From assembly GCA_963705115.1 (NCBI GenBank), contig CAVPIX010000010.1, positions 331,096-395,095 of the forward strand: a stretch of 64,000 nt of DNA, written 5' to 3'. Numbering within the stretch: position 1 is the first letter of the stretch; each line of letters begins with the position of its first letter. Below, piece by piece: positions 5,679 through 45,295 of this stretch. Position numbers and translations under genes: made by a program. The stretch comes from an uncultured delta proteobacterium (lineage in GTDB: Bacteria; Desulfobacterota; Desulfobaccia; Desulfobaccales; 0-14-0-80-60-11). The notes below the pieces were generated by a model, which was not told the DNA's origin, searched no databases, and was given only the letters and a program-made list of their open reading frames with translations.

Positions 5679-7961
5679 ATGAGCCCCGAAGTCCCCACCG
5701 CCAGCTTGCCTGAAGCCGCCAAAACCAGATTCTCCTCCCGGCGGGCCAGTTGGCTGCTGGTAGCCGCCCTGACCCTGGTGGTCTTGGCCCTGGCCCTCTT
5801 CCGCCCCCAGCTTACCGAGTTTATGGAACTGAAACTCGTGGATCTCAAGTTCCTCTTCCGGGGGGTTATGCCGGCCAGCCCGGAATTGGCCATCGTGGCC
5901 ATCGACGACGAGAGCCTGGCCAGCCTGGGGCGCTGGCCCTGGCCCCGGGAAGTATTTTCCCGGCTGATGCAGCGCCTCAAGGAGGCCCAGCCCAAGGTCA
6001 TCGGCCTGGACATTATCTTCGCCGAAAAGAGTGACAGCGCGGTGGCCGCCTCCATGGAGCGTCTCCGGCAGAAATTATCCCGGCGGGGCCAGGGCTCCCA
6101 GGAACTGTTGGCCTTGCTCCAGGAGGAGAAGCAGGCCGCCGACGTGGACCGCCGCCTGGCGGAGGAAATCGGTCAGGGCAGCCCCACCGTCCTGGGCTTT
6201 TATTTCAAAAAGGTGGGGGTCACGGTGCTGAGTGCGGAGCCCCCCCAAGACCTGGAACCCACCGTCATCCAGGTGAGCACCTACAACATCGTGCGCCGCC
6301 TGGGCCAGAAGGACCAGCATTTGCCCATCATCGGGGCCGCGGGGGTGGAAGTCAATCTGCCGGGCATCGCCGCGGCCGCGGCCGGCGGCGGCTATTTCAA
6401 CATGATCCCGGACCCGGACGGCACGGTGCGCTCCTCTCCCCTGGCCGTGGCTTACGGCCCTTATGTGTTCGCCCCACTGTCCCTGGTGACCCTGCAGCAT
6501 TTTCTGGACAACCAGCCCTTGGGGATCGCGGTTTCCCATTTCGGCGTCAAAGAAGTCCGCCTGGGCCGGGACCTCATCCCGGTGGACCGCTACGGCCGGA
6601 TGCTCATCAATTATTTGGGGCCGCCCGGCTCCTTCCCCCTGTATTCGGCCCGGGCCGTCATGGAAGGGAACGTCCCGCCCGATGCCTTAAAGGATAAGAT
6701 CGTCCTGGTGGGGGCCACCGCGGTGGGGGTCTATGATATGCGCGTCACCCCCTTTTCCGGGGTTTTCCCGGGGATTGAGATCCAGGCCACCATCGTTGAT
6801 AACGTTTTGCGGCGCAATTTTCTTAGGACCACCCCCTATGCGCCCCTCCCGGCTCTCCTCCTGATCGTGGTCCTTGGGGTGCTCTTAGGACTCATCCTCC
6901 CCCGGATGTCGGCCATCTGGGTATTCATGATCGGCCTTCTGCTGCTGATCAGCTTCATTGCCGCCAATTACGCCATTTTTCGCTATCTGGGGGTCAATCT
7001 GGACCTGTTTTACCCCATGCTGGAAATTATTCTCGTGACCGCGGGCATTAATCTCCAGAGCTTCTTAAGGGAGGAAAGAGCCCGAATCAGCCTGAAAAAG
7101 GCCTTCCAATCGTATGTCTCCCCGAGCATCGTGGAGGAAATCATCAAGAACCCGAAATTGCTGCGGCTGGGAGGGGAGCGCCGGGACCTAACCATTTTCT
7201 TCTGCGATATTCGCGACTTCACCAATATGGCCGAGAGGATGGATCCCGAGGACTTGGCCACCACACTGCACAATTTCTTAAATCCCATGAGCAAAATCGT
7301 GGTCAAACACGGGGGCACCATCGACAAGTTCATCGGGGACGCCATCATGGCCCTGTATGGCGCTCCCCTCCATTTTCCCGATCATGCCCGCCGGGCCTGT
7401 GCCACCGCCATTGACATGATTGACACCCTGAAGGCCCTTGATGAGGAGTGGGTGGGCCAGGGCCGCCCGGCCCTGAAAATCGGCATCGGCATCAACAGCG
7501 GCCCGGTGGCCGTAGGCAACATGGGCTCCGACACCCTGTTCGACTACACCGCCATCGGCGACAACGTCAATCTGGCGGCCCGCCTGGAGGGCCTCAACAA
7601 ATACTACGGCACCGAAATCATCATCAGCGGTTCCACCGCGGCGTCCCTGGATGACCAGTTTGTCCTCAGGGAACTGGACCTGGTGCGGGTCAAGGGGAAA
7701 CAGCAACAGGTGGCCATTTTTGAATTAATGAGCACAGCCCCTCCTGACCCCAACCTGGAGGCGTTTCTTAAACTATATCACCAGGGTCTGGAATATTTGC
7801 GCCAACGCCAGTGGGAGGAGGCGGTGACCGCCTTCTCCGCGGCCCTGCGGCTGCGTCCCCAGGACCATCAAGGCCACCGCTACCTGGCCCTGGCGCAACA
7901 ATACCTGGCCGAACCCCCAGGTCCGGAATGGCAGGGTCTCTCCATTATGCGGGACAAATAA
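5679..7961 (+). CDS. CHASE2 sensor-domain adenylate/guanylate cyclase (class III) with C-terminal TPR-like tail
   Basis: N-terminal TM segment, a periplasmic CHASE2-like region (AIVAIDDESLASLGRWPWPR), and 3 TM helices. Cyclase motifs are LTIFFCDIRDFT, IDKFIGDAIMALYGAP and GDNVNLAARLEG. Confidence 0.9.
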   Translation: MSPEVPTASLPEAAKTRFSSRRASWLLVAALTLVVLALALFRPQLTEFMELKLVDLKFLFRGVMPASPELAIVAIDDESLASLGRWPWPREVFSRLMQRLKEAQPKVIGLDIIFAEKSDSAVAASMERLRQKLSRRGQGSQELLALLQEEKQAADVDRRLAEEIGQGSPTVLGFYFKKVGVTVLSAEPPQDLEPTVIQVSTYNIVRRLGQKDQHLPIIGAAGVEVNLPGIAAAAAGGGYFNMIPDPDGTVRSSPLAVAYGPYVFAPLSLVTLQHFLDNQPLGIAVSHFGVKEVRLGRDLIPVDRYGRMLINYLGPPGSFPLYSARAVMEGNVPPDALKDKIVLVGATAVGVYDMRVTPFSGVFPGIEIQATIVDNVLRRNFLRTTPYAPLPALLLIVVLGVLLGLILPRMSAIWVFMIGLLLLISFIAANYAIFRYLGVNLDLFYPMLEIILVTAGINLQSFLREERARISLKKAFQSYVSPSIVEEIIKNPKLLRLGGERRDLTIFFCDIRDFTNMAERMDPEDLATTLHNFLNPMSKIVVKHGGTIDKFIGDAIMALYGAPLHFPDHARRACATAIDMIDTLKALDEEWVGQGRPALKIGIGINSGPVAVGNMGSDTLFDYTAIGDNVNLAARLEGLNKYYGTEIIISGSTAASLDDQFVLRELDLVRVKGKQQQVAIFELMSTAPPDPNLEAFLKLYHQGLEYLRQRQWEEAVTAFSAALRLRPQDHQGHRYLALAQQYLAEPPGPEWQGLSIMRDK

Positions 7962-8267: not shown

Positions 8268-8855
8268 TCACACCACCGCCAAAGCCAGCCAGCCGCCTTC
8301 CAGGGGCCGGGCCCAGGCCCTCACCGCCTCGGGGGTCTGAACCAGGAGTTCCAGCCCCTCCCAGGCCGGGGCCAGGAGGGCCACCCGGAGGTCCAGGGGG
8401 TCTTTGGTGTGAAAGCCCACTCCCAGGGCCTTGACCGCGGCCTCCTTGGCAGCCCATAACAGGGCCGCGGCCAAGGCCCTCTCGCCCCGGCAATGCCGCC
8501 AGGCCCCGTCCCATTCTTCCGGGTGAAAGGCGCGGGCGTAGGGATAGGGCGGTTGAAAATCCTCCACGCGGGCCGCGTCCACACCCACCCGGCCTTGTCC
8601 CGTCATCGCAGCCCAAATAAGGCCCCCCGCTTCACTGAAGGAGATGCTCGGCCCGGAGCTCTCCCCGAGTTTGAGGAGGGGTTGGCCCAGGGGGCCGGGT
8701 TCCAGAGCCAGGGGCCCCCATTCAGGAGCTTCGCGCCAGGCCGGGGCCAATCCAGCCAGGGCATGAAGCAGCCGGGCCGCCATAAGCTCCCGGGTCCCCT
8801 GCCCGGCCGCCATGGCCCCATACACCACCGGCCCCCCCCGGCCCAAGCGGGGCAA
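8268..8855 (-). CDS. 4'-phosphopantetheinyl transferase (Sfp-type superfamily)
   Basis: Contains LWAAKEAAVKALG (W-x-x-KEA-x-x-K signature) and VGVDAARVEDF. About 195 aa. Confidence 0.7.
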   Translation of the reverse strand: MPRLGRGGPVVYGAMAAGQGTRELMAARLLHALAGLAPAWREAPEWGPLALEPGPLGQPLLKLGESSGPSISFSEAGGLIWAAMTGQGRVGVDAARVEDFQPPYPYARAFHPEEWDGAWRHCRGERALAAALLWAAKEAAVKALGVGFHTKDPLDLRVALLAPAWEGLELLVQTPEAVRAWARPLEGGWLALAVV

Positions 8856-17333: not shown

Positions 17334-17445
17334 GTTCTCTCCAGGAGGGTCCATGATGAGGGAGACGACCCTTCCGACCATCCCCCAGCAGATTCCTCCC
17401 CGCCAGGGGTCGAGGAAAATCAACCAGGACAAGGAGGGTTACATT
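17326..17445 (+). promoter_or_regulatory. Conserved structured leader, copy 1 (candidate cis-regulatory RNA)
   Basis: Roughly three quarters identical to 17988-18110 in a by-eye alignment, including a perfect 28-nt block. Predicted stems are GGAGGGUC/GACCCUUCC and GAUUCCUCCCC..GGGG..AGGAA..UC. It ends in SD AAGGAGGG (17431-17438). Confidence 0.4.
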
Positions 17446-17987
17446 ATGGAGTTATGACGACAATAGTTGTTGAACCTCAAAGATGTTGTCTCTTCTACTT
17501 TGTGACCGGAATTGAAACAATATTTGGCAAAAGTCATCGATTTCTCCAAAATTAGGAAGGCATGCTGAACCTAACAAAACTGCCTCCATGCTGCTTTATC
17601 TATTGCCTCGTGATAACAAGGATGAAATTCATTTTGAGACCTTGAAGAATAACATAAAACAAAAGTATGGTCTTGCGTGAGGTTAATGTGGTGAATAAAA
17701 TTAACGATATTCTCACACAACTGGAAAATTGATAGCTTTCTGGATGATCGACCGGCATTGGCAAGGACAGGAACCAGCAATCCAGACCCCTTGAATCTGT
17801 TTAATACCCCGGAACAATGGCAAGACCCGGGTCTTATAGCAGGCTTAGGACCAATTTGCCGGGCCTCCCACTATTACAGCACCGGCTATATAATGATCAC
17901 CATCAGGCGATGACCTTTTTCCCCTAATAATAACAAAAATTTTTTGTTAAGAGATTGCTTGACAACCTTTGAGAAGTTTGCCATTCG

Positions 17988-18110
17988 CTTTTTTTGTTCT
18001 CTCCAGGAGGGTCCGCAAGCAGGGAGTAGAACCTTCCAAGCAGCCATCGGCAGATTCCTCCCCAACAGGGGTCGTGGAAAATCAATGACGGAAAAGGAGG
18101 GCTATTAATT
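17988..18110 (+). promoter_or_regulatory. Conserved structured leader, copy 2 (candidate cis-regulatory RNA)
   Basis: Paralogue of 17326-17445, with differences falling mainly in predicted loops and bulges. A TTGACA box lies at 17959-17964. SD AAGGAGGG is 7-9 nt before the ATG at 18111. Confidence 0.4.
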
Positions 18111-18179
18111 ATGGCCGAAATACCAAGTTACGCGGGTAATTGTTTGAGCCTGAAAAATGAGCAATTTACGCATTCTTGA
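18111..18179 (+). CDS. Micro-ORF, 22 aa (MAEIPSYAGNCLSLKNEQFTHS): candidate precursor or leader peptide
   Basis: Strong SD. The homologous frame in unit 1 (17446-17505) ends at the equivalent stop (..LLNLKDVVSSTL* vs ..CLSLKNEQFTHS*) but carries two in-frame stops. Confidence 0.3.
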   Translation: MAEIPSYAGNCLSLKNEQFTHS

Positions 18180-18625
18180 CGGAAACCACAACAGGACCAT
18201 TCATAGGGAAACTTCTTCTCCAGAATGGAAGAAAATCATACAAACAAGTAATTCATGCGGAATTATTCTTTATTTACTGACTCTGATAAAATGGCGACGG
18301 AGTTCCCTTTAATGTCTTAACGAACTCGTTTCTAAAATTTTCTGGCGCCACTGAGGCTGGAATAAATATTTCCTGGATAGACTTGACAATGATTATAAAA
18401 TCTCAAGGTAACGAGTTGTCGTGGGGGAGATTATAAGACCTGGATCCGTAAACTGATTTGCTTCTCAGGTGCCGGGGGAAGCCCAGAGTCAAGAAGGTGG
18501 TCCGCCGATTTGCAAGGATTCCACCTATTATAGCCCAGGAATCATTGCTGTTCCAGTGAAACTAACAAGATTAAGTTCTAACTGAGCTAACTTCTGGCCC
18601 CCGGGCGAGGGACGGGAACTGATCC

Positions 18626-19659
18626 ATGGATGGACTCGCCATTGAACTCACCAATGTCTGCAATCGGCGCTGTCTGCATTGCATCCGCAACAAGGCGGAC
18701 GCCCCTGAGTTCATGTCCCTGGCCCTGGCCCGGGAAGTCCTGGAGCAGGCCCGGGCCCTGGGCTTCCGGACTGTCTGTCTGACGGGCGGGGAGGTGGCCC
18801 TTTACCCTCACCTGAAAGAGTTCCTGGCCCTGGTGGCGGACCAGGGTTTGGCTTTCAACCTGGTGACTAACGGCCACCGCTTTCGGGAATACCTCCTGCC
18901 CCTGTTGACCGCTCCCAAAATCAAGGAGAGGCTGACTGCCGTGAGCTTCAGCCTGGACGGGGCTCACCCTGAAACCCACGACGCCCTGCGGGGGCGAGGG
19001 TCCTTCCGGGAGGTGGTGGAGGCCGCCACCCTCTGCCAGGTATCAGGCATTGCCTTCGGTTTTAAGACTATCATCACCAACTTCAACAAAGAGGAACTCA
19101 CCGAGGTGGCCCTGTTGGGGGCCGATCTGGGAGCCCAGGACCACGGTTTTCTGCACCCCTTTCCCTCGCCTCAAGCCATCCGTGCTGAAGTTTCCCTCAC
19201 CCTCATGAAGTCAGGGAAATTCATGGGTGGATTGGCGGCAGCCTGGCCAAAGCGCTGCGTCCTAAGATATTCCTCGAAGGTTATGGTCATCGGGCCACCT
19301 TGTTCACCTGCCCCAACATCATGGATGGCGCCAACCTGGATTATCAGGGGAACCTGGTTCTCTGCTGCAACCTCTCCCACGTCACCAGGGAAGATGGCGA
19401 ACCTAGCGTCTTTGGCGGGGAATGGCTGGCAGACCTCAAAGAAGTGTCCCTCCGGGAAGGGCTCATTCGGCATTATCAGGCGGTGGCCCGACTTATGGAA
19501 GCAAGGCTTCGGGACATGGAAAACCTTACGGACTTGACTTTTGTCCCCTGTTATTGGTGTTTCCGGCACTTCGGCAAGCTCGACTGGCTCAAAGATTTTC
19601 CCCACTCTCTCTGGTCTCCAGGTCTTTTGCAGGAGGAACAACGCCATGCGGTCATTTAA
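18626..19659 (+). pseudogene. Radical SAM / SPASM-domain peptide-maturase-like enzyme, split by one apparent frameshift (about 19200)
   Basis: CNRRCLHC (CxxxCxxC) with VCLTGGEVALYP and FNLVTNGHRF in ORF 18626... The SPASM-like part (FTCPNIMDGANLDYQGNLVLCCNLS...FVPCYWCFRHFG) is in the -1 frame, open from 19189 to 19659. Adding one C in the CCC run at 19200-19202 restores ...AEVSLTPHEVREIHGWIGG... Confidence 0.75.
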
Positions 19660-22600
19660 GCCAAAAAAGGTGCTGCTGCCGACAATGCTCTTGTACCTGG
19701 GCTTGGCCTTGACCTCCTTAGCCGGCGCCGCCGAGTTGGCGGGCCGGCTGGTTTTCCAGGAAGGCCAGGTGGCCGTGCGTACTGCCGGGACGGAGCAATG
19801 GCAGAAAGCCCGCCTGCACCAGGAGCTCTTTGGAGGGGATACGGTGCGCACCGGGGCCCACTCCCGGGCCGCGATCCTCTGTATGGATGAAAGCCAGATC
19901 AGGCTCAATCAGCATACGGTGCTGACCCTGAAAAGTGTGGCCCCCTCCCCCCGCCTGCGCCTGGGGGAGATCGCCCCCGCCGCCCAGGCTAAGGAAGCCG
20001 CAGTGAGCAATTACCAGGTGATTCAGGGGGAAATCTGGCTGCGCAATAAAAAGGAAAAGTTTCTCTTCGAGTTGGAGACCCCCACCGTCACCGCCACCAT
20101 CCGAGGCACGGAATTAAATGTGCGGGTGCAGCCTGACGGCGCCACCAGCGTCATTCTCCTGGAGGGCGATGTCAAGCTGGCCAACCGCTACGGCGAGGTG
20201 ATCCTGGCGGCCGGCGAGGAGGGGGTGGCCCTCCCCGGCAAGCCCCCCACCAAACAGGTAATAGTGCAGCCTGCGGACGCGGTGCAGTGGTCCCTGTTCT
20301 ATCCGGGATATTTCAGTTTTCGGGATTTGCCCTTGCAGGCCCTGGAGGGGGCTGGCCCCCCTTCTGCTAAAGCCGCGCTGGTGAGCCAGGGGGTGGCGGC
20401 CTATGACCAGGGCCGTCTGGCCGAGGCCGATAACATTGCCAACCAGGCTTTGGCCCAGGCCCCCGCCAACCCCCAGGCCCTGTCCCTGGCAGGGTGGGTG
20501 CGCCTGCAGCGCCGCCAGCCGGAGGAGGCCCTGGGATTTTTTCAGCGGGTGGACAAGCCCGGGGCCGCGGCCCTGGTGGGCGCCGCCCTGGCCCTCTATC
20601 AGACCGGCGACGCGCCGGGGGCCTATCTTCTCATGAAATCCGCAGACAAACCCAATCCCGGCCATCCCATCGTCAAGGCCATGACCGGTTATTTCGCCAT
20701 GCTCGTGGGAAGGACCGAGGAGGCCCGCCAACTCCTGGGGGCGGCGGCCGCCAGTTCCTCGCCGGTGGCGCAATTGCTGGCCACCTGTTACCTGGCCCAG
20801 ATGGACCTGGTGCAAAACCGCAAAGCCGAGGCCAGGTCCCAGGCGGACCGGGCTGTGGCCCTGGCTCCCGCTTCGCCGTTGGCCCTCCTGACCCGGGCCC
20901 TGGTGGACATCGCCGACTTTCAATTGCCTGCGGCCCAGCGGCGCCTGGAAAAGGCCCTGGAAACGGATCCCCATTTCGTGGACGCTGCCCTCTATTTGGG
21001 CAAGCTTTATCTGGGGGGGAATTATTTCACCAAGGCCAGGCAGGTGGCGGACAAGGCTTTGCAGCAGGCCCCCCGGGACGCCCGGGTTCTGTCCCTGGCA
21101 GGCTTTGTCGATATCGCCTTTCGGCGCTTCGAGAAAGCCAGGGAGCGCTTTACCCAGTCCATCAAGGAGAGCCCCCAACTGGCCGAAGCCCACCTGGGGC
21201 TGGCCATCTGCCAATTCCGCTTCCAGGAGCCGGATCGAGCTTTGGCTGCCATGCTCACCGCTACTCTCCTGGACCCCCGTCTGTCTGCCTACCAGAGTGA
21301 GTTGGGCAAGGCCTTTTACCAGGTGCGGGCCTTTGACAAGGCCCTGGCCACCTGGGATTACGCCGCCAAACTGGACCCCAAGGACCCCACCCCCCATTTT
21401 TACAAGGGCATTGCCCTCACCGACCTGAACCGCCCGGGAGAGGCCGTCCAGTCCATCAATCAGTCCATCGCCCTGAACAACAACCGGGCGGTGTTCCGCT
21501 CCCGCCTGCTCATGGACCGGGACCAGTCCACCCGCAACTACAACCTGGCCCGGTCCTATTCCCAGTTGGGGTTGGGGGAGTGGGCCCTGAGCAAGGCCAT
21601 TACCGCGGTGAAGTTGGATCCCTTGAACGCCTCGCCCCACCTCTTCTTGTCCAGGGCCTACCGGGCCTCCGACCAGCGGGTGGTGGCCGTGGACTCCGAA
21701 GATCTATTGTACCGAGTCTTGTCCCCTGCCACCCAAACCACTTTCCGGTATCTCCTGGAAAACGATTACACCTCCATGTTTGAGATGCCTTACGCCCGAG
21801 CGACGATTCAGGGCGGCATCGGTTCCTGGGAGGAGAGGAAGGCCATACACGATGATTTTGTGGGAGCCTACGGGGGGATACCCGGAGCGGCCTTTTTTGG
21901 TCAAGGATCATATCTGCAGGACCCGGGCTTTCGGGGGAAAAACGCCGATACGCAAACCTGGGACGCTCAGGGAATCTTCAAGGTGGAGCCCACGGTGCAC
22001 GGCAACCTGACGGGGTTTGTGCGATACAACAACGATAATTTTGGAGAAAGAGGGAAACCCAACGACTTTTTTTACCGCAACGAAACCGATTATCGGGCAA
22101 ACGCTAAACAACAATACTATGAAGCCTCCTATCTCCACAACTTCACTCCCAACTTAGGCCTGCTGGCATATTATCGGTATTTCAGACTGGATGACCATCG
22201 GTACGGGAACTTTCTCTATTATCTCGATCGGACAGAAAAGATTCTTCAAAGAGAAATTTATGCCGATGCCTTCAATAATCCTTTTCAAAACATCCAATTG
22301 CAGGCGCAGCTGAAACTGGGAAAGCATACCCTTCTCGGCGGCTATGACTACTTCACCGGGCCTATCAATTTTTCCATAAAGCAAAATTTCTTTATGCTGG
22401 CTTACAGTGAAGTGATTCCCACTGGGCAGACTTACCAGTTTATTTCGCCGGTTGACCGAACCTACAGTTTCTACCTCCTGGACTACTGGCGGTTGGCTCC
22501 CTGGCTGTTGGTGGAAATGGGGATCTCCCGGGATATCGCCAGAAATGCCGGCGCCGACTCCCGACCCTACACCAGCACCCTCTGGAGCACCCGGTTGGGC

Positions 22601-23319
22601 TTCAATATTCAGATAAATCCTAAGCACACCGTGCGCCTGGCCGCGATGCGGTATCTGGACACCCACCAAATCCTGACGCCCCTTTCTGGTGCCAACGGAG
22701 GTGGCCGGCCTGCCCTGGGTGGAGGACACCTTGCCCGGCGCGGAGGTGCGCCAGGCGGGGGCCTCCTGGGAAGCCCAATGGGACCCCAAGACCTTCACCG
22801 CGTTACGCCTGTCCGCCACCCGGGTGGGGGTTCCGGCGTATTTTTCCGCCTACTGGGCTGAAAAGGATCTGGCCTACAACTATGTTGCCTGGCAGGGCTG
22901 GCGGCGTTACCAGGCCTCTCTGTTCCTGAACCGCATCCTCACCAATTCTTTGGGCCTGAGATTGGGGGTCACGGGCAAGCGGTTCTTTCCCGACAAAAGC
23001 TTCAGATCCTGATTTCGAAACCTTCACCGAGGTGAATTGGCTTTTAGGCCTCAACTTCCTAACCCCCAAGGGCTGGCAGGGAGGAATCACCAACCGGCTG
23101 GTGTATCAGTATGTCAGGAACCGCTCCACCGAATTCTTTGACATTGTCAATCTCAGGTTCGGCAAGGAATTGGCCAACAAACGGGGGCTTATCACTGTCG
23201 AGGTGCAGAATTTGTTCAACCGTCACTTTTTTTATCGACTGCAGCCTACCTACTACGTAGATACGCCGGATTTTTATCCGGCCCGGCGGTTCATTGGCAA
23301 GATTCAGCTCTGGTTCTAG
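19646..23319 (+). pseudogene. FecR domain - TPR repeats - C-terminal outer-membrane beta-barrel protein, with two apparent +1 frameshifts near the 3' end
   Basis: ATG at 19646 with AGGAGG at 19631-19636. Signal peptide MRSFKPKKVLLPTMLLYLGLALTSLAGAA, a FecR block (GQVAVRTAG..GDTVRTGAHSRAAILCMDESQIRL..TATIRGTELNV) and many TPRs. The barrel continues in ORFs 22689..23012 and 23032..23319, ending ..IGKIQLWF. The shifts lie at the C4/T3 run 22679-22685 and the A4 run 22995-22998. Confidence 0.75.
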
Positions 23320-25303
23320 ATTCCTGCAACACCCCCTGGGGCGCGCCCTGGGCCTGGGGGTGGCGGTTTTTATCATGGTCATGGCCCTAGCCTCCCAGGA
23401 CCTGGGCCGCACCCTGGAAAACGCCATCCTGGACCTGTGCTGCCGCCTGGAGCCGGCCTCCGCCCCGCCCAGGGAGATTCTCCTGGTGGGCATCGACAGC
23501 CACTCCTTTCGGTCCCTGGGCCGGGCCTGGCCCTGGCCCCGGCGCTACCACGCCCGCCTCATTGACCGCCTGACCAAGGCGGGTGCGGCGCTCATCGTCT
23601 TTGATGTCTTTTTCGGCGAGCCCACGGACCCCGAGGATGACCGTCTCCTGGCCGAAGCCGTGAAGAAATCCGGCAAGGTGATCCTGGCCCGGGTGATCGA
23701 GTCCACCCAGGACCCGGTTTTTTCCCGGCAGATCATCCTCAACCCACTGGATTCCCTCTGTGCCGCGGCGTGCGGCCTGGGGGTAAGTCTCCTCACCCCG
23801 GACGCCGATGGGGTGGTGCGCCATTTCTCCCTTGCCCTGGCCGGCCAAAAGACCCTGGCGGATGAGGTCTTGCGCGTCCTGAAACCGGACATGGCCTTCC
23901 CCGCGGATTTCACGGGCTTGATCCGCTATACGGGCCCGCCCCAGTCATTGGAGAACATCTCCTACCACGAGGTTCTAGGCGACGGGGAGCTTCCCCGGGA
24001 GCAGATTAAGGACCGGGTTGTCCTGGTGGGCCGCATGATCGAGGACATCCCCCTGTCCCAGGGGCAGGTTGACGCCTTTCTCACCCCCTATCGAGGCGCG
24101 TCCCAGAGTGGCTTTATGTCCGGGGTGGAAATTCAGGGGAACATCATTTACAACCTGCTCACCGGCACCTGGGGCCAGGAGCTTACTCCGGGAACCCGGG
24201 CCGTCTTTTATCTTACGGTGTTCCTGGCCTTCAGCCTGTTGTCGGCACGGCTCACCCCCGGCGTCAGCCTGGGGTTGCTGGCCGGCTTGGGCTTGGCCCT
24301 GTTGCTGGGCACCTGGCTGGCGTTATGCTTTTTTAACCTGTGGATTCACCCGGTGCTCCTGGGCGCGGGGCTATCTCTGATTTACGCCATCAACCTCTTC
24401 ACCCATCACGTTTCCGGGCTCCAGGAGAAGCGCTGGCTGCACCAGGCCTTCACCCACTATGTCTCCCAGGAGGTGGTGGAAGCCCTTATGGCGCATCCGG
24501 AGCGGTTCGAACTGGGGGGAGAGGAACTGGAAGCCACCGTGATGTTCGCCGATCTGGCCGGGTTTGCCGAAATCTCCAAGGGCATGGCGCCCAAGGAGAT
24601 GGTGAACCTCCTGAGCGACTATTTCACCCCCCTGACGGATATTATCCTGGCCCACGGCGGCACCCTGGATAAGTACATAGATTCCCGCCTCATGGCGGTG
24701 TGGGGGGCGCCGCTGCCCAATCCCGACCACGCCCGCCGTGCCTGTCAGGCGGCCCTGGCCATGCAGCGCCGCATCGATGAGGACCTGCGGGAGCGGCAGG
24801 CCAGGGGGCAGGCCTTCCTGGGCCTCAACCTGGGCCTCCATTCCGGGCAGGTTATGGCCGGCAACGTGGGCTCCCGGGAGCGTTTCAATTACACCATCAT
24901 GGGGGACACGGTGAACCTGGCTCATCGCCTGCAGGCATTGAACCGCAGCTACGGCACCCACCTTATTCTGAGCGGGGGCACCCGGTCCCTGGCGGGGGCG
25001 GGTTTTCTGGTGCGGGAACTGGACCTGGCCCAGGTGCGGGGCCGGGTGCAGACGGTGAGCATCTTTGAACTGCTGTGGTCGGCGCCGGGGGATGCCGTCC
25101 CCCTATGGCTCACCACCTTCGAGGAGGCCCGGGCCGCGTACCTGGGGCGAAACTGGCGGCAGGCGGCCGCGCTGTTTGAAGAGGTGATCCGCCTCAAACC
25201 GGAAGACGGCCCTGCCGCCCTGTACCTGCGGCGCTGCCGGCGCTACCAGGAAGCGCCCCCGCCGCCGGACTGGCAGGGAGTTTCGGGGTTGGAGGGGGCA
25301 TAA
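23294..25303 (+). CDS. CHASE2 sensor-domain class III cyclase, paralogue 2 (variant metal-site motif)
   Basis: CHASE2-like LLVGIDSHSFRSLGRAWPWPR, TM helices, and the cyclase motifs ATVMFADLAGFA, LDKYIDSRLMAVWGAP and GDTVNLAHRLQA. The start is uncertain (TTG 23294 overlaps the upstream stop). Confidence 0.85.
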   Translation: MARFSSGSRFLQHPLGRALGLGVAVFIMVMALASQDLGRTLENAILDLCCRLEPASAPPREILLVGIDSHSFRSLGRAWPWPRRYHARLIDRLTKAGAALIVFDVFFGEPTDPEDDRLLAEAVKKSGKVILARVIESTQDPVFSRQIILNPLDSLCAAACGLGVSLLTPDADGVVRHFSLALAGQKTLADEVLRVLKPDMAFPADFTGLIRYTGPPQSLENISYHEVLGDGELPREQIKDRVVLVGRMIEDIPLSQGQVDAFLTPYRGASQSGFMSGVEIQGNIIYNLLTGTWGQELTPGTRAVFYLTVFLAFSLLSARLTPGVSLGLLAGLGLALLLGTWLALCFFNLWIHPVLLGAGLSLIYAINLFTHHVSGLQEKRWLHQAFTHYVSQEVVEALMAHPERFELGGEELEATVMFADLAGFAEISKGMAPKEMVNLLSDYFTPLTDIILAHGGTLDKYIDSRLMAVWGAPLPNPDHARRACQAALAMQRRIDEDLRERQARGQAFLGLNLGLHSGQVMAGNVGSRERFNYTIMGDTVNLAHRLQALNRSYGTHLILSGGTRSLAGAGFLVRELDLAQVRGRVQTVSIFELLWSAPGDAVPLWLTTFEEARAAYLGRNWRQAAALFEEVIRLKPEDGPAALYLRRCRRYQEAPPPPDWQGVSGLEGA

Positions 25304-25751: not shown

Positions 25752-25786
25752 GCCGCCCCATGGCCATGAGGCGGCCTTTTTATTTT
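25752..25786 (+). terminator. Terminator-like hairpin (bidirectional: A-run upstream, T-run downstream)
   Basis: GCCGCC (25752-25757) pairs with GGCGGC (25770-25775), followed by TTTTTATTTT. A sister element lies at 26053-26082. Confidence 0.45.
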
Positions 25787-26110: not shown

Positions 26111-27271
26111 CTACTCCTTGATTTCCTCTTTCACCGACACCGCAACCTTATAGAGCACGGTGAGGATGAGGAAACCGATGGAATAGACGCCCAGGGAGAT
26201 GAGGATCTCCGGCACGGTGGGCCAGTACTCCACCACCCTTTCCAGGGGGTTGGGCACAAAGCCGCCGGTCATGAGTCCCAGGCCTTTGTCGATATACGTG
26301 GTTATGATAATCAGCCCGCAGGTCATGGCCAGGGTGGTTTCGTTCTCCCGGATCTTGGGGGACACCATGAGGAGCGCGGCCACCGTCATGCCGGTGAGGG
26401 CGAACCACATCCAGGGCACCAGCTTGGCCTTGCCGTCGATCCCCTGGAAGAGGTATTGGAAGTGGAGCATGTGATCCGGAATCTGGCTGTAGAACACGGT
26501 GAACACTTCACAGAAAAAGAAGAACACGTTGATCAAAATGGCGTAGGAGACGATCTTGGCCAACGTCTGGATCTGCTCTTTCCCCGGATCAAACTTGCTG
26601 TACTTCCTGACCAAAAGGGCCAGAAGGATCAAGAGGGATGGGCCGGCGGCAAAGGCCGACGACAGGAAGCGGGGGGCCATGATGGCGGTGAGCCAGTAGC
26701 CCCGCCCCGGCAAGCCGGCGTACAGGAACGCCGTCACGGTGTGAATGCTGGGCGCCCAGGGAATGGACAGGAGGATCAGAGGCTTCACCCAGTTGGGGGG
26801 CTTGACTTCGTGACGCTCCGATTCCAGGACCACCCAACCGATGACGATGTTCAGGAGCAAATAGACGTTCAGAACGATCATATCCCAGAAGAGCACGGAA
26901 TTGGGGGTGGGATATTTGATGATGTTAGCGAGCCGGTCAGGGCGGCCCAGGTCCACGATGACGAACATGAGGCACATGAGGACCGCAGGCACCGCCACGA
27001 ATTCTCCCAGGATGGTGATCCGGCCGAAGGCCTTGTAATCATGCAGGTAGTAAGGGAGAACCACCATGACGGCGCTGGCCGCCACGCCGACCAAGTAGGT
27101 GAGCTGCGCGATGTAAAATCCCCAGGAGACATCCCGCCCGAGGCCGGTGGTGTAACCCAGGCCGTATTTCAACTGCATCAGGTACATGGACGACCCGACC
27201 AGTATGAAGAACAGCAACACGCCCAGCAGCGTATAATATCTTCTGCTTCCTACTAAGGCATTTTCCAGCAT
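26111..27271 (-). CDS. dsrP: DsrP, NrfD-like integral membrane subunit of the DsrMKJOP complex
   Basis: 10-TM NrfD/PsrC-like sequence. It is the last gene of the M-K-J-O-P order. Confidence 0.9.
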   Translation of the reverse strand: MLENALVGSRRYYTLLGVLLFFILVGSSMYLMQLKYGLGYTTGLGRDVSWGFYIAQLTYLVGVAASAVMVVLPYYLHDYKAFGRITILGEFVAVPAVLMCLMFVIVDLGRPDRLANIIKYPTPNSVLFWDMIVLNVYLLLNIVIGWVVLESERHEVKPPNWVKPLILLSIPWAPSIHTVTAFLYAGLPGRGYWLTAIMAPRFLSSAFAAGPSLLILLALLVRKYSKFDPGKEQIQTLAKIVSYAILINVFFFFCEVFTVFYSQIPDHMLHFQYLFQGIDGKAKLVPWMWFALTGMTVAALLMVSPKIRENETTLAMTCGLIIITTYIDKGLGLMTGGFVPNPLERVVEYWPTVPEILISLGVYSIGFLILTVLYKVAVSVKEEIKE

Positions 27272-27278
27272 AGCGTCC

Positions 27279-28091
27279 TCACACGATATAGTAAACTTGC
27301 GGGTTGGTGCCGAGATGCACTTTGCGGCGGATGGCGAAGTTGGCCTTCAGGGCCTCCCGCACCGGGGATTTTTCCTCGTTTAGGTCGCCGAAGATGAGGG
27401 CTCCCTTGCTTTCCACCACGCAGGCGGGCAGCTCCCCCTTGGCCAGCCGTTTGGCGCAGAAATCGCACTTTTCCACCATTCCCGGCTCCCGGGTGGGATA
27501 TTCAGGGTGGGTTTCCTTGATATAGGGCCGGGGGTCCCGCCAGTTGAAGCTGCGGGCCGAGAACGGGCAGCCCGCCATGCAGTACCGGCAGCCGATGCAG
27601 CGGTGCATGTCCATCATGACGATGCCGTCGGCCCGTTTGAAGGTGGCCTGGGTGGGGCACACCCGGACGCAGGGCGGGTTGTTGCAGTGGTTGCAGAGCA
27701 GCGGGAATTTCATATGGTGGACCCGCTCTGACATAACCTGCGCTTCTTCGCCGGGGAAGGCGTTGTGGAAGGGGTCGGTCCAGATCCACTTGACCTGCCA
27801 CCGCACCAGTTCTTCGGGGGTGACGGCGTCCTTGGGGTTGACCGGATTGGCAAAATCAGGGACGTTGTGGATTTTATGGCAAACCTCGATGCAGCGCTGG
27901 GCGGTGGCGTCGTCCAGCTTGCGCATGTCCACCGCCATGGCATAGCGCTTGGCCGCCTGGGGCGCAGGGCCGGCAGCAACGGCCGCCTCCAGTTGGCCGG
28001 GGCGCAAAAGCTCCCAGGCCGATTTGGCGCCCAGCCCGAACAGGGTGGAAAGTCCAGCAATCCTGATGAATTCTCGTCTGTTGATACCCAT
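27279..28091 (-). CDS. dsrO: DsrO, periplasmic 4Fe-4S ferredoxin-like subunit (Tat signal)
   Basis: Tat motif MGINRREFIRIAG. Cluster motifs CNHCNNPPCVRVCP and CIGCRYCMAGCP. Confidence 0.9.
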   Translation of the reverse strand: MGINRREFIRIAGLSTLFGLGAKSAWELLRPGQLEAAVAAGPAPQAAKRYAMAVDMRKLDDATAQRCIEVCHKIHNVPDFANPVNPKDAVTPEELVRWQVKWIWTDPFHNAFPGEEAQVMSERVHHMKFPLLCNHCNNPPCVRVCPTQATFKRADGIVMMDMHRCIGCRYCMAGCPFSARSFNWRDPRPYIKETHPEYPTREPGMVEKCDFCAKRLAKGELPACVVESKGALIFGDLNEEKSPVREALKANFAIRRKVHLGTNPQVYYIV

Positions 28092-28579
28092 TACTTCACC
28101 TCCGCCTGCGCCATCTTTCCTGCCGTGGGGGGTTTATCCAGATGGCAGCCCCAGCAGTTCGGCGCCACCGCTACATAGTTGTGGCACTGGTCGCAAAATT
28201 CCGCCTTGTTGGCATGGCATCCCAGGCAGGTGTTGGTGAGGCTGGGCTCAAATTTTTTACCGCTGGGGCTTACCCACACCCGGTTGCCGGTACGCACCAC
28301 CTGATCCCGCCAATCAATCAAGAGCTGCATGTGGTAGGCCCGCATCTCTTCCGTGGGGAGAACACATTGTTTATCTTTGTCGGCCAGGCTTTTGATAGCC
28401 GGGGTGTCCAGACTGGGTTTAGGCGGCGGGACAACCCTTCCGGCATTCAGCCACAGGGGGGACGTGGCCAGGATAACCAACACGGCCAGTCCGATGAAGA
28501 TCGCCAATTTGTTATAGATCTTCTTCTCAACCTGCGGGCGCTCGGCAAACCACCCGAATTCGTTCTTGTAGTCAGCCAT
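28091..28579 (-). CDS. dsrJ: DsrJ, membrane-anchored triheme cytochrome c
   Basis: Three CxxCH motifs (CLGCH, CDQCH, CWGCH) and an N-terminal anchor helix. There is a 1-nt overlap with dsrO (TAATG). Confidence 0.9.
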   Translation of the reverse strand: MADYKNEFGWFAERPQVEKKIYNKLAIFIGLAVLVILATSPLWLNAGRVVPPPKPSLDTPAIKSLADKDKQCVLPTEEMRAYHMQLLIDWRDQVVRTGNRVWVSPSGKKFEPSLTNTCLGCHANKAEFCDQCHNYVAVAPNCWGCHLDKPPTAGKMAQAEVK

Positions 28580-30223
28580 TTATTCCGCTTCCTCCTCACC
28601 CTCCGCTTCCTCGAAACCCACTAAGGGCCGATCGCGCAGGTCGGTGGTGCGCTCAATTTCATCAGGGAAGACCAGGGCGTTGCCCACCAGTTCGGTAATC
28701 CCGGTGACTTCCACTTCGGGGATCCAGTAGTTCACCAGGGTGGGGAGCGTGGCCCGGTCCAGGGCGCAGATGCAGCCCAGGTGGTTGACCCCGTATTTTT
28801 CCGCCACGTGCCGCACGGCATTGGCCCGGGGGAAGCCGCCCTTCATCCTGGTTTCCATGAGCTCATCAGCGTTCAAAGCGGCGCTGCTGCCGCAGCAGAA
28901 GGTCTTTTCCCGGATGGTGTTGGGCGGCATCTCGAAGAAATGACCTTCGGGCAGGACATTATTGATGATGTAGCGGGGCTCTTCAAAGATGCCCATGGCC
29001 CGGGCGGTGTTGCACGAATCGTGGAAGGTGAGCTTGATGTGCTCATTCCGGCTCACGTCGAACTTCAGCTTGTTGTTGTGAATCAAATCCGCGGTGAACT
29101 CGGAGATGTGCACCATCTTATGGGCCTGGGCGTTCTCGAACACCGTGCCGGTGACGGGGGACTTGGGCACCTCCAGGAAGCTCGGGGATTCGCCGTAGTA
29201 GGTGCCCATGTACTGGTTACAGACCCGCCACATGTGGCCGCATTCCCCGCCCAGGATCCACTTGACCCCTAAACGCTTGGCCTCTTCATACATCTTGATG
29301 TTGAGGCGCTTGCCCATCTCGTGGGAGATGAACCAGCCGAAGTTGCCCCCCTCGGCCGCATAGGTGCTGACGGTGTAATCCAGGTCGAGATACTTGAACA
29401 GCAGCAGGTAGCCCATCATGGTGTAGCTGCCGGGGTCGGCGAAGTAGTCGCCGGAGGGCGTAATGAAAAGAATTTCCGCGCCCTTGCGGTTATAAGTGAC
29501 CGGCGTTTCGATGCCGGTGATGCGCTCGTTTTCCTCCGCCAGGAAGTCGATCATATCCTTGAAGGCCTGGGGAGTGGCGCCGATGTGGCTGCCCTTGGTG
29601 TAGCAGCTCCCCACTGAGGCCATGGCCCAGTCGAAGTTGATACCCACCGAGGCCAGCATTTCCCGGCCCAGGAGGGTCATCTCGGTCATGTCGATGCCGT
29701 AGGGGCAAAAAACCGAGCAGCGGCGGCACATAGTGCACTGATGGAGGTAGTAAAACCACTCCTTGAGGACATCTTCGGTGAGGTCCCGTGCTCCAGCCAG
29801 GGCCCCCAACATTTTGCCGGCGGGCTTAAAGTAGCGTTTGTAAACGGAACGTAAGAGCTCCGCCCGCATTACCGGCATATTTTTGGGGTCGCCGGTGCCC
29901 AGATAAAAATGACACTTGTCGGCGCAGGCGCCGCAGCGCACGCAGATGTCAAAAAAGAGTTTCAGACTGCGGAAGCGGCTGAGACGATCTCCCATCTGTT
30001 GGAGAACAATCTCTTTCCAATTTTCCGGAAGCTTCCAGTCCTCATCGGCTACCGACCAGGCCCGGGGGTAAGGATAGTTGACCATCTCCAACCACTTGGG
30101 TTGGGCGGCATTGACATAGGTGCCCGGCCGGAAATCTGGTTTGACATCCATCCAGCCCTTGGCCGGGGGCTGGTAATTGACTTGAGCCAACTCTTGAGGT
30201 TTGGGTACCTTTACCTTAGCCAT
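28580..30223 (-). CDS. dsrK: DsrK, HdrD-like iron-sulfur catalytic subunit
   Basis: CVRCGACADKC and CTMCRRCSVFCP ferredoxin motifs, plus a CCG-domain region (FHDSCNTAR.., TFCCGSSA). Confidence 0.9.
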   Translation of the reverse strand: MAKVKVPKPQELAQVNYQPPAKGWMDVKPDFRPGTYVNAAQPKWLEMVNYPYPRAWSVADEDWKLPENWKEIVLQQMGDRLSRFRSLKLFFDICVRCGACADKCHFYLGTGDPKNMPVMRAELLRSVYKRYFKPAGKMLGALAGARDLTEDVLKEWFYYLHQCTMCRRCSVFCPYGIDMTEMTLLGREMLASVGINFDWAMASVGSCYTKGSHIGATPQAFKDMIDFLAEENERITGIETPVTYNRKGAEILFITPSGDYFADPGSYTMMGYLLLFKYLDLDYTVSTYAAEGGNFGWFISHEMGKRLNIKMYEEAKRLGVKWILGGECGHMWRVCNQYMGTYYGESPSFLEVPKSPVTGTVFENAQAHKMVHISEFTADLIHNNKLKFDVSRNEHIKLTFHDSCNTARAMGIFEEPRYIINNVLPEGHFFEMPPNTIREKTFCCGSSAALNADELMETRMKGGFPRANAVRHVAEKYGVNHLGCICALDRATLPTLVNYWIPEVEVTGITELVGNALVFPDEIERTTDLRDRPLVGFEEAEGEEEAE

Positions 30224-31284
30224 TACTTCTCCTCTTCCACCGGCGCGGCCGACGGAATCTCCACCGGAAGGCCGGCTTCAATCATAGCTTCGCGATAGTC
30301 GTTTTCCTGATCCATATAGGTGTGGAACTTGACCGGGTAGTTCCAGGGGTTGACGTGAACCCGCTGGCGGTTGTTGTTGGCCAGGTTCCGAGTGGGGCTT
30401 AAGAACACCCCCGGCGCGTGCAGGAGCTTGCTGAAGGGGAAGTAAGCCAACAGCACGCTAACCAGGAAGAGGTGGACATAAAATAACGGACTGATGCCCG
30501 CGGGCACCACCGGGTGCAGGGTCACCAGCCCCAGGGCCAGCTCTTTCACCGCGGTGATGTCGGTGCGGTACACATAGCGCATGAAAAACCCGGTAAAGCC
30601 GATGCCCAGGATGAGAAACAGGGGAAAATAATCGGCGGCCAGGGAGATGTAACGAATGGCCGGATTGCGGAGGCGCCGGAGCAGGAGATAGGTCACGGCC
30701 GTCAACAGGATGATGTCCGTCAGGTACACAACCGGGGTGTAAAACTGGACAAAGCCGTCCACCTTCTCGATGCTGTGAACAAAGCCCCAGGTGGGCTCCG
30801 AAAAGAAACGCAAATGCCGCAAAAAGATAAGCAGGAAGGCGTAATGGAAGGCGATGGCCCCGAGCCAGAGCCACTTATTGGACCAGTGCACCAGTTTTTT
30901 GCCTTCCGGGAACTTGTCCATTTTCTGCAGTTCGGTGCGGGTGTTGCGGAAAAGACTGCGAAACCCAAAAATTTCCAGGGCCATGCGGCCCACCACCTGG
31001 GTGAATTTGCTGGGGTTGTCCAGTTTGTCCTGCACCGTGCGCTTGATCCAGGGCATGGTAACGTTTTGGGCGCAGGTGGTGGGGATGCGAAACGGCACCG
31101 GAGAACGAACCCATTGAATGATTTTGTAAATCAGGCCTTCAATAAAGAGGAAAACGGCCAGATAAGGGATGGCCACCCCGAAGACCCATTGCAAATTGGC
31201 CTGTGCCCCGAAGTAGGCAATCGCCATTAAACCGAGGACGACTGCCAGCGGCACGAAGAAATGCATCTTGAAGAAATCCGTCAT
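30223..31284 (-). CDS. dsrM: DsrM, NarI-like dihaem cytochrome b membrane subunit
   Basis: Polytopic protein with conserved His-containing helices (AFHYAFLLIFLRHLRFF; FYVHLFLVSVLLAYFPFSKLLHAPG). It is the first gene of the MKJOP block. Confidence 0.9.
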   Translation of the reverse strand: MTDFFKMHFFVPLAVVLGLMAIAYFGAQANLQWVFGVAIPYLAVFLFIEGLIYKIIQWVRSPVPFRIPTTCAQNVTMPWIKRTVQDKLDNPSKFTQVVGRMALEIFGFRSLFRNTRTELQKMDKFPEGKKLVHWSNKWLWLGAIAFHYAFLLIFLRHLRFFSEPTWGFVHSIEKVDGFVQFYTPVVYLTDIILLTAVTYLLLRRLRNPAIRYISLAADYFPLFLILGIGFTGFFMRYVYRTDITAVKELALGLVTLHPVVPAGISPLFYVHLFLVSVLLAYFPFSKLLHAPGVFLSPTRNLANNNRQRVHVNPWNYPVKFHTYMDQENDYREAMIEAGLPVEIPSAAPVEEEK

Positions 31285-31333
31285 GTACGGTCACCTCGTT
31301 TGAAGTTCGCCTGGTTGCCGGAGGTTGGCGGCC

Positions 31334-31846
31334 TTACGGGTTGTCGATCTCGATGCCCGCCCGCCGCAACAGCCCGCTGACCTTGGCCTTCACCTCATTG
31401 ACCTTCAGTTCACACAGCTTCTCCCGGCGTTTGGTGTAGGCGTCAAAACCCAGGAGGGCCAACCCGTCGATGCGGGACTCCAACTCCACCAGCTCCGAGG
31501 CCAGAGAAAGGTCCTTCAGTTCTGCCGCCAGTTCCTCCCGGATCACCTGCTTGAGGAAAAACATGAAAGCCATCGCCCGGGAAGGCGGGATGTCCTGAAG
31601 GGCCAGAATCCGGATAATTTCATCCAGCGCGGCGTTGGCTTCCTCCACCCCCAGGTCCTCCATTAAAGCCGCCAGGATGTCCGTTAGACCCCGGGTCAGT
31701 TGGTGGACCACCGGATTACCAAAAGGATCTTTTTCCTTTTTCAGGAACTGCGCCGTCTCAGGATAGTAGCTGCCCAACACCATATTCAGCCATTTCTGGT
31801 GAATGGCCGCGCTGTTGGCAGAGAGGAAGGGGACCAGCCGCTGCAT
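31334..31846 (-). CDS. RsbRD N-terminal-domain protein (commonly found upstream of dsrMKJOP)
   Basis: MQRLVPFLSANSAAIHQKWLNMVLGSYYPETAQFLKKEKDPFGNPVVHQL. The listed ORF starts at 31939, but the Met at 31846 fits the family N-terminus. It lies 49 nt upstream of dsrM. Confidence 0.7.
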   Translation of the reverse strand: MQRLVPFLSANSAAIHQKWLNMVLGSYYPETAQFLKKEKDPFGNPVVHQLTRGLTDILAALMEDLGVEEANAALDEIIRILALQDIPPSRAMAFMFFLKQVIREELAAELKDLSLASELVELESRIDGLALLGFDAYTKRREKLCELKVNEVKAKVSGLLRRAGIEIDNP

Positions 31847-32141
31847 ATTAATTGTGAAAGATATAACGACCTCAAAATCAGTGTCAAGGAAAAATTGCCC
31901 GTGGGTCACAGGCGCCGGGGATATTGCGGCCCTACCCAACTGAAGAGCAATTACAGTATGTTACCCTGACCGCCCCTCGGCGTATTGATACTATAGACAA
32001 AACTTAGGCAATGTAAAGTGAAAAATTTCACAGACAAACCTTCGTGCGGGGGAAGCCCAGGGATCTGAGGTCCGTGCCCTCCCCCCTTAAGTCTCGACTA
32101 GGTCTTTTGCCGAGCCAAGGACAGAAGCGATTAATGGAGAA

Positions 32142-32187
32142 GTGGGGCGGGCGTCCCGCCCACCATCTTGGTGCGCATGGCGCACCC
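32142..32187. repeat. Two-hairpin composite repeat, inverted copy of 8011-8058
   Basis: GTGGGGCGGGCGTCCCGCCCACCATCTTGGTGCGCATGGCGCACC. Confidence 0.75.
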
Positions 32188-32221
32188 TACACAAACTTTT
32201 CCTAAACAGGCAAAATCAGGT

Positions 32222-32506
32222 TTATGAGGGCGTGTCTGAAGATGGCGGGATGGGCTTCGAAGGGGGAGCTTTCCGGGGGGTCGCCAGGCGGCGGCGAAAA
32301 AGGGCATGGCCCCGGTAATCCAAATAGTCGAAAAAATAGACGTTAGCCACAAAAAACAGGGTTATGCCCAGCAAATAGCCCAAACCTGCCAGCTCGAAAT
32401 GCCGGGTCAGGAGCTTGGCGGCCAGAAAACCGAAGAGCAGCCTGAGAAAAAAGGTGAAAGCCTGTTGTATCACCCTGAGCCTGGCCTCCCTTCTCCCAGG
32501 CAGCAT
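32222..32506 (-). CDS. Hypothetical small membrane protein
   Basis: Two hydrophobic helices (FTFFLRLLFGFLAAKLL, GLGYLLGITLFFVANVYFF). No recognisable family. Confidence 0.3.
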   Translation of the reverse strand: MLPGRREARLRVIQQAFTFFLRLLFGFLAAKLLTRHFELAGLGYLLGITLFFVANVYFFDYLDYRGHALFRRRLATPRKAPPSKPIPPSSDTPS

Positions 32507-44031: not shown

Positions 44032-44057
44032 GATGGAGACAGTACTTGTACCGAGTT

Positions 44058-44288: not shown

Positions 44289-44313
44289 GACTCGGTATTA
44301 GGGGAAAAGGCAC

Positions 44314-45283: not shown

Positions 45284-45295
45284 TGATAAAAGCTT

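Follow-up and report, generated by a model that had tools for sequence, protein, structure and literature searches.

A probable decayed copy of a conserved module that may link a radical SAM enzyme and its small protein partner to an NsrA-like outer-membrane protein and a CHASE2 cyclase in Desulfobaccales

CHASE2 is a widespread extracytoplasmic sensor domain for which we know of no defined ligand, and the sole NsrA-CHASE2 cyclase pathway studied so far, to our knowledge, responds to an exogenous protein. Radical S-adenosylmethionine (SAM) systems that depend on a recognition element (RRE) of RiPPs, peptides that are made by the ribosome and modified after translation, include PqqA/D/E, mycofactocin MftA/B/C and QhpC/QhpD/QhpE of quinohaemoprotein amine dehydrogenase (QHNDH); in the last, a small protein receives its modification in the cytoplasm, and an S8 peptidase processes it before it passes to the periplasm. 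NsrA is an outer-membrane protein with a barrel at amino acids 600-1200 (PMC7529298), and it is needed for the response of the CHASE2 cyclase CyaK to the protein signal uL2 (PMC7529298, PMC13001267, PMC10463352). A CHASE2 adenylate cyclase, a FecR-domain outer-membrane protein, a tetratricopeptide repeat (TPR) protein and a phosphodiesterase form a cyclic AMP (cAMP) cluster in Campylobacterota (PMC9239204), and operons of a LysM-FecR protein with a CHASE2 histidine kinase have been reported in Burkholderia (BiofilmReg) and Pseudomonas aeruginosa (PMC5192318). Here, a stretch of 64,000 nucleotides (the window) from contig CAVPIX010000010.1 of an uncultured delta proteobacterium of the Desulfobaccales was analyzed. 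It contained a region which we read, with a rough probability of 0.6, as a decayed copy of a four-gene module conserved in Desulfobaccales and relatives, whose enzyme would modify a small protein, called SP below, that would in turn act on a receptor-cyclase pair. The order of the module is SP, radical SAM enzyme, NsrA-like outer-membrane protein and CHASE2 class III cyclase.

The receptor-cyclase half of this module was already known. In a tblastn search against plasmids, the outer-membrane protein matched rhizobial megaplasmid proteins in the FecR domain only (residues 40-244). Rhizobium BG4 (locus L078) and Sinorhizobium meliloti 2011 pSymB (L080) encode FecR and TPR proteins of 1213 aa and about 1219 aa, respectively, and in both loci a CHASE2 cyclase gene follows, whose start overlaps the stop of the first gene. 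The alignment of the family profile with the BG4 protein by hhalign gave a probability of 99.9 and an E-value of 1e-32 over 993 columns, and the window cyclase was 31% identical to the rhizobial cyclase beside the NsrA-like gene. Judged by sequence, this half is the same arrangement as the S. meliloti pSymB pair taken as NsrA-CyaK, in architecture, size, gene order and overlap. The gene nsrA is also said to lie directly 5' of cyaK. The first-pass annotation of this DNA had known of no described system with such a composition, a statement that did not hold for the receptor and cyclase, which match the pSymB pair and resemble the Campylobacterota cluster.

The distribution of the module was determined by scanning one genome per species for the outer-membrane protein, which gave 77 loci; the cyclase was counted in the 55 loci with at least 2.6 kb downstream, and the radical SAM gene in the 40 loci assessable on both sides. 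A CHASE2 cyclase gene lay directly 3' of the outer-membrane protein gene in 38 of the 55 loci, mostly with the same small overlap, and these included Desulfovibrionaceae, Desulfobulbus, Desulfonatronospira, Acidobacteriota and Chromatiaceae. The radical SAM gene was present in 14/40 loci, eight of them with the cyclase. It was found 5' of the outer-membrane protein gene in about 12 loci and 3' of it in about 11, three of the latter having it between the outer-membrane protein gene and the cyclase. The gene of SP, a protein of 130-220 aa in the relatives, stood directly 5' of the radical SAM gene wherever the latter was full-length and the locus included sequence upstream of it (about 20 loci), and the two genes frequently overlapped by a few bases. 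Complete and intact four-gene modules were found in L081, L085 and L087. Co-occurrence elsewhere, on which the first-pass annotation had made its proposal depend, was borne out by these counts.

In the neighbour-joining tree of the outer-membrane proteins, nearly all radical SAM loci fell into one clade, which suggested that the SP and radical SAM genes were acquired once and then retained through rearrangements of gene order. These two genes are an add-on limited to one outer-membrane protein clade, in which they stay together. About two-thirds of the related loci, all those of Desulfovibrionaceae included, lacked the radical SAM gene, as would be seen if it were merely adjacent to the signalling pair and functionally unlinked to it. 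This explanation is at odds with the occurrence of the gene beside the outer-membrane protein gene in three different gene orders and with its confinement to a single clade. It is also at odds with the look-ups anchored on SP, in which a radical SAM gene again followed SP directly (4/4), and a FecR/TPR gene and a CHASE2 cyclase were found wherever the flank was long enough (3/3; the contig of L088 was too short). Mere adjacency was largely refuted by these neighbourhood data and is very improbable. The link of the radical SAM gene to the receptor-cyclase pair is real and seems to be undescribed, and no paper that combines CHASE2 with a radical SAM enzyme was found in the literature collection searched.

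Some related loci carried further genes. Directly 5' of the intact module of L085 (3365-7371), a 165-aa protein binding cyclic nucleotides and a 1121-aa MalT/BTAD-type regulator were encoded, and these are candidates for effectors that act downstream of the cyclic nucleotide. In L017, L027, L035 and L067, which had no adjacent cyclase, the outer-membrane protein, SP and radical SAM genes were followed by genes of zinc-ribbon and WD40-repeat proteins (for example, L035 15996-17316). Several genomes contained two or three paralogous NsrA-like modules (L001 and L031; L014, L027 and L029; L011, L048 and L074), of which some included the SP and radical SAM genes and others lacked them.

In the window, the three large genes were joined by short overlaps (Table 1). 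The radical SAM frame closed with TAA at 19657-19659, 14 nt into the outer-membrane protein gene, whose ATG at 19646 was preceded by AGGAGG at 19632-19637. The outer-membrane protein ended in ...IGKIQLWF with TAG at 23317-23319, and its gene overlapped the TTG (23294) of the cyclase gene by 26 nt. Both junctions had been described correctly before, and identical overlaps of 14 nt and 26 nt were kept in the intact relative L081. Terminators between the genes had been named as a sign against a common unit; terminator-like sites in the unit were not above the shuffled background (14 found and 13.8 expected). The majority of promoter-like matches lay in the AT-rich spacer at 17.1-18.6 kb, and a weak match was located at 23294-23322, at the cyclase start. 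Co-transcription of the radical SAM, outer-membrane protein and cyclase genes is likely from this arrangement. Among the terminator-like hairpins of the region, the strongest had a GC-rich stem of 10 bp and a T-run and was found at 25752-25775 on the minus strand, between the cyclase and a convergent NrfD/ferredoxin operon.

Table 1. Positions in the window of the module genes, their domains and the associated upstream elements
Feature	Position	Strand	Basis or remark
5' leader and ribosome-binding site GGGGTCGAGGAAAATCAACCAGGACAAGGAGGG before SP copy 1	17404..17445	+	read from sequence
SP pseudogene copy 1	~17446..17913	+	tblastn with intact SPs of L001, L081 and P0148
SP pseudogene copy 2	~18111..18585	+	tblastn with intact SPs
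Radical SAM enzyme gene	18626..19659	+	PF04055, E 7e-23; 344 aa after repair
NsrA-like outer-membrane protein gene	19646..23319	+	Pfam, AlphaFold2, Foldseek; 1223 aa after repair
FecR domain of outer-membrane protein	~19838-20176	+	
TPR solenoid of outer-membrane protein	~20330-21630	+	about 15 TPRs
22-strand TonB-dependent-receptor-like barrel	~21740-23316	+	
CHASE2 class III nucleotidyl cyclase gene	23294..25303	+	Pfam; 669 aa, intact
CHASE2 domain	~23369-24235	+	transmembrane helices after
Cyclase catalytic domain	~24530-25048	+	

The outer-membrane protein began with a signal-peptide-like sequence and was matched by Pfam with FecR (PF04773, E 2.7e-13) and many TPR families, while its barrel gave weak matches to PF00593 (TonB_dep_Rec_b-barrel) and PF14905 (OMP_b-brl_3). 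The signal peptide, FecR domain, TPR array and barrel with the terminal QLWF that had been ascribed to a protein of about 1220 aa were all recovered; the gene carries two frameshifts. A total of 260 full-length homologues, mostly of 1200-1280 aa, were found in Desulfobaccales and other Desulfobacterota. The AlphaFold2 model of P0010, a homologue with 75% identity, reached a pLDDT of 80 and a pTM of 0.70, and was composed of a beta-rich N-terminal domain (FecR), about 30 helices (TPR, residues 165-656) and about 22 long strands (668-1179). Its barrel was most similar in Foldseek to FptA, FhuA, FpvA and OprC (E ~1e-13). No Plug domain was matched by Pfam, and the model passed from the end of the TPR part (656) straight to the start of the barrel (668). 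The profile search of the outer-membrane protein against PDB sequences returned TPR proteins only, and the barrel was identified via structure prediction. According to the model, the barrel is TonB-dependent-receptor-like and follows a periplasmic FecR domain and TPRs.

The cyclase was assigned by Pfam to CHASE2 (E 7.8e-45) and Guanylate_cyc (PF00211, E 2.1e-20), and was 75% identical to the cyclase of L081 over the full length. The first metal-binding Asp (FADL) was present. The second metal-binding motif was IDS and not IGD in the window (~24650-24665) as well as in L081, L001 and L004 (YIDS[RCS]L), so that the change was kept even in cyclases of intact modules; MDS was found in L033, IGS in L002 and IGDA in all other homologues. 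The Lys...Thr specificity pair, read in the way usual for class III cyclases, suggests cAMP as the product. In L051, L056 and L057, frames of about 1600 aa looked like cyclase "fusions" but were rejected as artefacts of long open frames in GC-rich DNA. A second, divergent FecR-CHASE2 pair was present in the window, consisting of a FecR-domain protein of 389 aa that has a signal peptide (3923-5092, minus strand) and a 760-aa CHASE2 cyclase with C-terminal TPR and the canonical IGD motif (5679-7961, plus strand). This pair was accompanied neither by a barrel nor by a radical SAM gene.

The radical SAM enzyme carried a CX3CX2C cluster motif, whose C12, C16 and C19 were conserved in 94% of 33 family members, and further conserved cysteines at C137, C229-X12-G-X4-C247-C248 and C309-X2-C312. 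The SPASM domain assigned to it by the first-pass annotation was not supported: no match to the SPASM hidden Markov model (HMM; PF13186) was obtained at E up to 1, the seven-cysteine SPASM motif (CX9-15GX4C...CX2CX5CX3C...C) was incomplete, and the C-terminal cysteines form, by their spacing, a partial SPASM or twitch-like pattern. The best curated matches were ScmF, NirJ2, MftC, StsB and AhbD. All of them were far under the cutoffs and covered the core domain only, and for this reason the placement of the enzyme among peptide and non-peptide enzymes was uninformative. The relatives in L001 and L081 were intact, with 75% identity. The enzyme probably modifies a peptide or protein, which fits the finding that SP, with its predicted RRE fold, always precedes it.

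SP belonged to no Pfam or NCBIfam family and gave only sub-threshold matches to the PqqD HMM (E ~0.007). The family was rare, with 30 proteins in an indexed search and 96 representatives among 1.84 billion in a full profile search. In the AlphaFold2 model (pLDDT 86), residues 1-110 were folded into strands followed by three helices, and a stretch of roughly 30 residues at the C-terminal end was disordered. The best PDB matches in Foldseek were all RREs, namely lasso B1 (6jx3_B), TbiB1 (5v1v_A and 5v1u, structures bound to the leader peptide) and PqqD (5sxy), and enzymes containing an RRE ranked after them. The target TM-scores were 0.73-0.75 for lasso B1 and TbiB1 and 0.58 for PqqD, with probabilities of 0.99-1.0. 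SP is predicted on this basis to have an RRE (PqqD-like) fold. The conserved disordered C-terminal tail is the candidate core region; it ended in a motif of about YDLDF[RS]VNWFGxGxxK[GVI]P-x0-2 in most members and in PICKxNTFYSSGWIAVPIRR in the clade of the window. Twin-arginine (Tat) signals (SRR[AKNT]FF[KT]) were found in at least six family members and Sec signals in two; the proteins with either kind of export signal numbered at least nine and included P0144, P0150, P0193, P0195, P0203, P0231, P0212 and P0233.

In the window itself, SP was represented by two tandem pseudogene copies, each derived from a gene of about 150 aa and broken by frame switches and in-frame stops. Copy 1 was recovered by tblastn as pieces at 17450-17668 and 17701-17910 in different frames; its N-terminal part lay in one frame with two in-frame stops, and its C-terminal part in another, reading ...NPDPLNLF...GPICRASHYYSTGYIMITIRR up to the stop. 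Copy 2 (MAEIPSYAGNCLSLKNEQF... then ...GGPPICKDSTYYSPGIIAVPVK) extended over three frames with several in-frame stops. What had been taken for a duplicated cassette of leaders and micro open reading frames (micro-ORFs) was composed of these two copies, and the micro-ORFs were their surviving first codons. A leader of about 40 nt ending in AAGGAGGG preceded both copies (at 18063-18110 for copy 2) and also the intact SP gene in L001 (about 8300-8336), and the bases 5' of the SP start were likewise conserved in more distant loci. The repeated leader may have a regulatory role. Its identity with any known riboswitch or leader RNA was considered and rejected, the Rfam scan of 15.5-26.5 kb having given no match.

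The substrate of the enzyme might also be a short ribosomal peptide, which would be secreted through or handled by the barrel protein and read as an autoinducer by the CHASE2 cyclase, close to what the first-pass annotation had in mind. The coupling of the radical SAM gene to an RRE-fold protein and the conserved motif at the extreme C-terminus of SP are in keeping with such a peptide, and the subtilisin-like S8 peptidase encoded between the outer-membrane protein gene and SP in L083 (13687-15228; also in L084) could release the tail. The gene order of L083 was outer-membrane protein, S8 peptidase, SP, radical SAM and cyclase; by analogy with QhpE of QHNDH, the peptidase hints at processing of SP. 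However, it was found in one locus type only, and the TonB-dependent-receptor-like barrel is an import or signalling fold, not a known exporter. Clustering of small ORFs (15-120 aa) 5' of radical SAM genes revealed none that was conserved except SP. A separate micro-ORF precursor was rejected because the remaining small-ORF clusters were out-of-frame echoes of known genes, and the micro-ORFs of the window were pieces of the decayed SP gene. We regard the short-peptide autoinducer as unlikely. From the circuit proposed earlier, the radical SAM linkage was retained, and the micro-ORF peptide gave way to SP, a folded protein of about 150 aa, as the likely substrate.

SP could instead be an adaptor, that is, a discrete RRE which presents another protein to the enzyme, such as the outer-membrane protein or the cyclase prior to export, so that the receptor itself would be matured, as sulfatases are by anaerobic sulfatase-maturating enzymes (anSME). 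An RRE fold is normally a leader-binding module, and SP and the enzyme co-evolve with one outer-membrane protein clade and can lack an adjacent cyclase, both of which agree with an adaptor. The Tat and Sec signals on some family members would make no sense for a cytoplasmic adaptor, and SP has its own conserved disordered C-terminal tail. This role is rather less likely still than that of the autoinducer.

We prefer the reading of SP as the modified protein that acts on the receptor-cyclase pair. In the cytoplasm, the radical SAM enzyme would modify SP, most likely in its tail. SP would then enter the periplasm and bind either the receptor, at its FecR/TPR part, or the CHASE2 domain, and the FecR domain would relay the signal to the CHASE2 domain in a way analogous to FecA-FecR signalling. 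Binding of SP would set the cyclic-nucleotide output of the cyclase, probably cAMP.

Several points weigh against this reading. The enzyme met no curated family and reached no NCBIfam cutoff, and its weak best matches mixed peptide maturases with haem and cofactor enzymes. The E-values of the Foldseek matches of SP were weak (~1e-2), although the top matches agreed with one another, and an RRE fold normally reads a precursor peptide and is not itself the substrate. Most SPs, including those of the window's clade, had no export signal. Six loci contained SP, the enzyme and the outer-membrane protein with no cyclase within the fetched flank, and the cyclases of this clade, judged from the missing canonical GD motif, might be inactive or altered. 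That the pSymB reading frame (L080) is NsrA, and that nsrA is the gene directly 5' of cyaK, are assumptions of ours. Finally, hypF (50330-52463, plus strand), outside the module, was split into two overlapping ORFs; the break of HypF_C at profile position 78/79 placed a frameshift near 51.4-51.6 kb, and with such a frameshift in the same window, some of the module lesions could be assembly errors.

The lesions of the module were placed by nucleotide alignment to L081, L001 and L004. The outer-membrane protein gene is 3674 nt long, which is not a multiple of three, and it switched frame twice: near 22684 a C-run contains one extra nucleotide, and near 23003 a deletion has removed 5 nt; compared with L081, its frames covered 19646-22684, 22680-23009 and 22987-23316. 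The radical SAM gene had one frameshift, the loss of one nucleotide near 19228, and was aligned with L081 in two frames. The lesions clustered in the radical SAM and outer-membrane protein genes and in both copies of SP, leaving the cyclase as the sole intact gene of the module. Assembly or sequencing errors would make the module intact and working in the organism, and besides hypF, it is in line with them that, of the three lesions placed in the large genes, two lay in or beside short homopolymer runs, that the same truncated protein was found on a contig of 1.55 Mb, a length suggestive of long-read assembly, and that split genes also occurred on the related long contig of L001. Errors of this kind account poorly for a deletion of 5 nt and for several frame switches and in-frame stops in both SP copies. 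They also account poorly for at least three lesions within 4.7 kb when some 8.7 kb of genes on either side (15128-16013 and 26117-32422) and cyclase were intact compared with L081. We consider it improbable that the frameshifts are errors, and real decay is the likelier explanation, held with good confidence. By this comparison, the module of the window is probably an inactive relic in which the two copies of SP are disrupted along with the maturase and receptor genes, and the circuit that had been envisaged as acting in this DNA is probably non-functional here.

Two other features of the window were recorded. A predicted lipoprotein of 282 aa (16296-17144, plus strand), with the lipobox LAC, a Gly/Ala-rich centre and no Pfam match, had a counterpart at the same place in L001 and was absent in L081. 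The GC content of 44001-46000 was 0.46 compared with about 0.6 elsewhere, and this segment may be a foreign insert.

The result for this genome is the more modest one, a module relic with the cyclase alone intact. For the clade, the tie between a receptor-cyclase pair and a small protein with its dedicated radical SAM enzyme provides a candidate ligand that can be expressed, and the enzyme would have a substrate of an unusual kind, one polypeptide that combines an RRE fold with a putative core tail. A bolder view, which we put forward tentatively and hold to be doubtful, is that SP is the founding example of a radical-SAM-modified, self-encoded periplasmic ligand with an RRE-fold "leader", serving as the endogenous signal for NsrA-type receptors and CHASE2 cyclases. 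If true, SP would be the first genetically defined ligand of a CHASE2 pathway.

Among the described systems, NsrA-CyaK is alike in its outer-membrane protein, which is about 1200 aa long and combines a signal peptide, a FecR domain, TPRs and a C-terminal barrel, and in the gene of this protein, which extends past the start of the gene for a CHASE2 class III cyclase. It differs in its very low sequence identity beyond the FecR domain and in the IDS found in place of IGD in the cyclases of the window's clade. No SP or radical SAM gene was annotated at L078, where no query for either was run. The rhizobial signal is the exogenous basic protein uL2 (PMC7529298), whereas a self-encoded modified protein is the candidate here. 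The Campylobacterota cluster also groups a CHASE2 cyclase genetically with FecR, TPR and an outer-membrane protein, but there the TPRs and the FecR outer-membrane protein are on different polypeptides, a phosphodiesterase is included, and a radical SAM enzyme or RRE is unreported (PMC9239204). The LysM-FecR/CHASE2 kinase operons likewise encode a FecR-domain periplasmic protein beside a CHASE2 sensor (PMC5192318). They differ in having no barrel, no TPR and no radical SAM gene, and their output is a kinase.

The FecA-FecR-FecI system is similar in that a signal from the surface reaches the inner membrane by way of a TonB-dependent-receptor-type barrel and a periplasmic FecR domain. In contrast, FecR is fused here to the barrel protein and not to an inner-membrane anti-sigma factor, no Plug was detected by Pfam, and the output is a cyclase instead of a sigma factor. 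For an extracytoplasmic function (ECF) sigma factor, no sigma-factor domains were found among the called neighbours of the intact modules (L081, L085 and L087). As generally known, the Pqq, Mft and Qhp systems also place a PqqD-fold protein directly before a radical SAM enzyme of SPASM or twitch type, and a C-terminal motif is the likely target; QHNDH can further be compared with regard to the S8 peptidase of L083 and to the Tat or Sec signals that some SPs carry. The present module differs from them in three respects. Its enzyme lies below every curated family cutoff, the RRE fold and the putative target tail would belong to one polypeptide, and the partner is a signalling pair rather than a dehydrogenase or a cofactor pathway.

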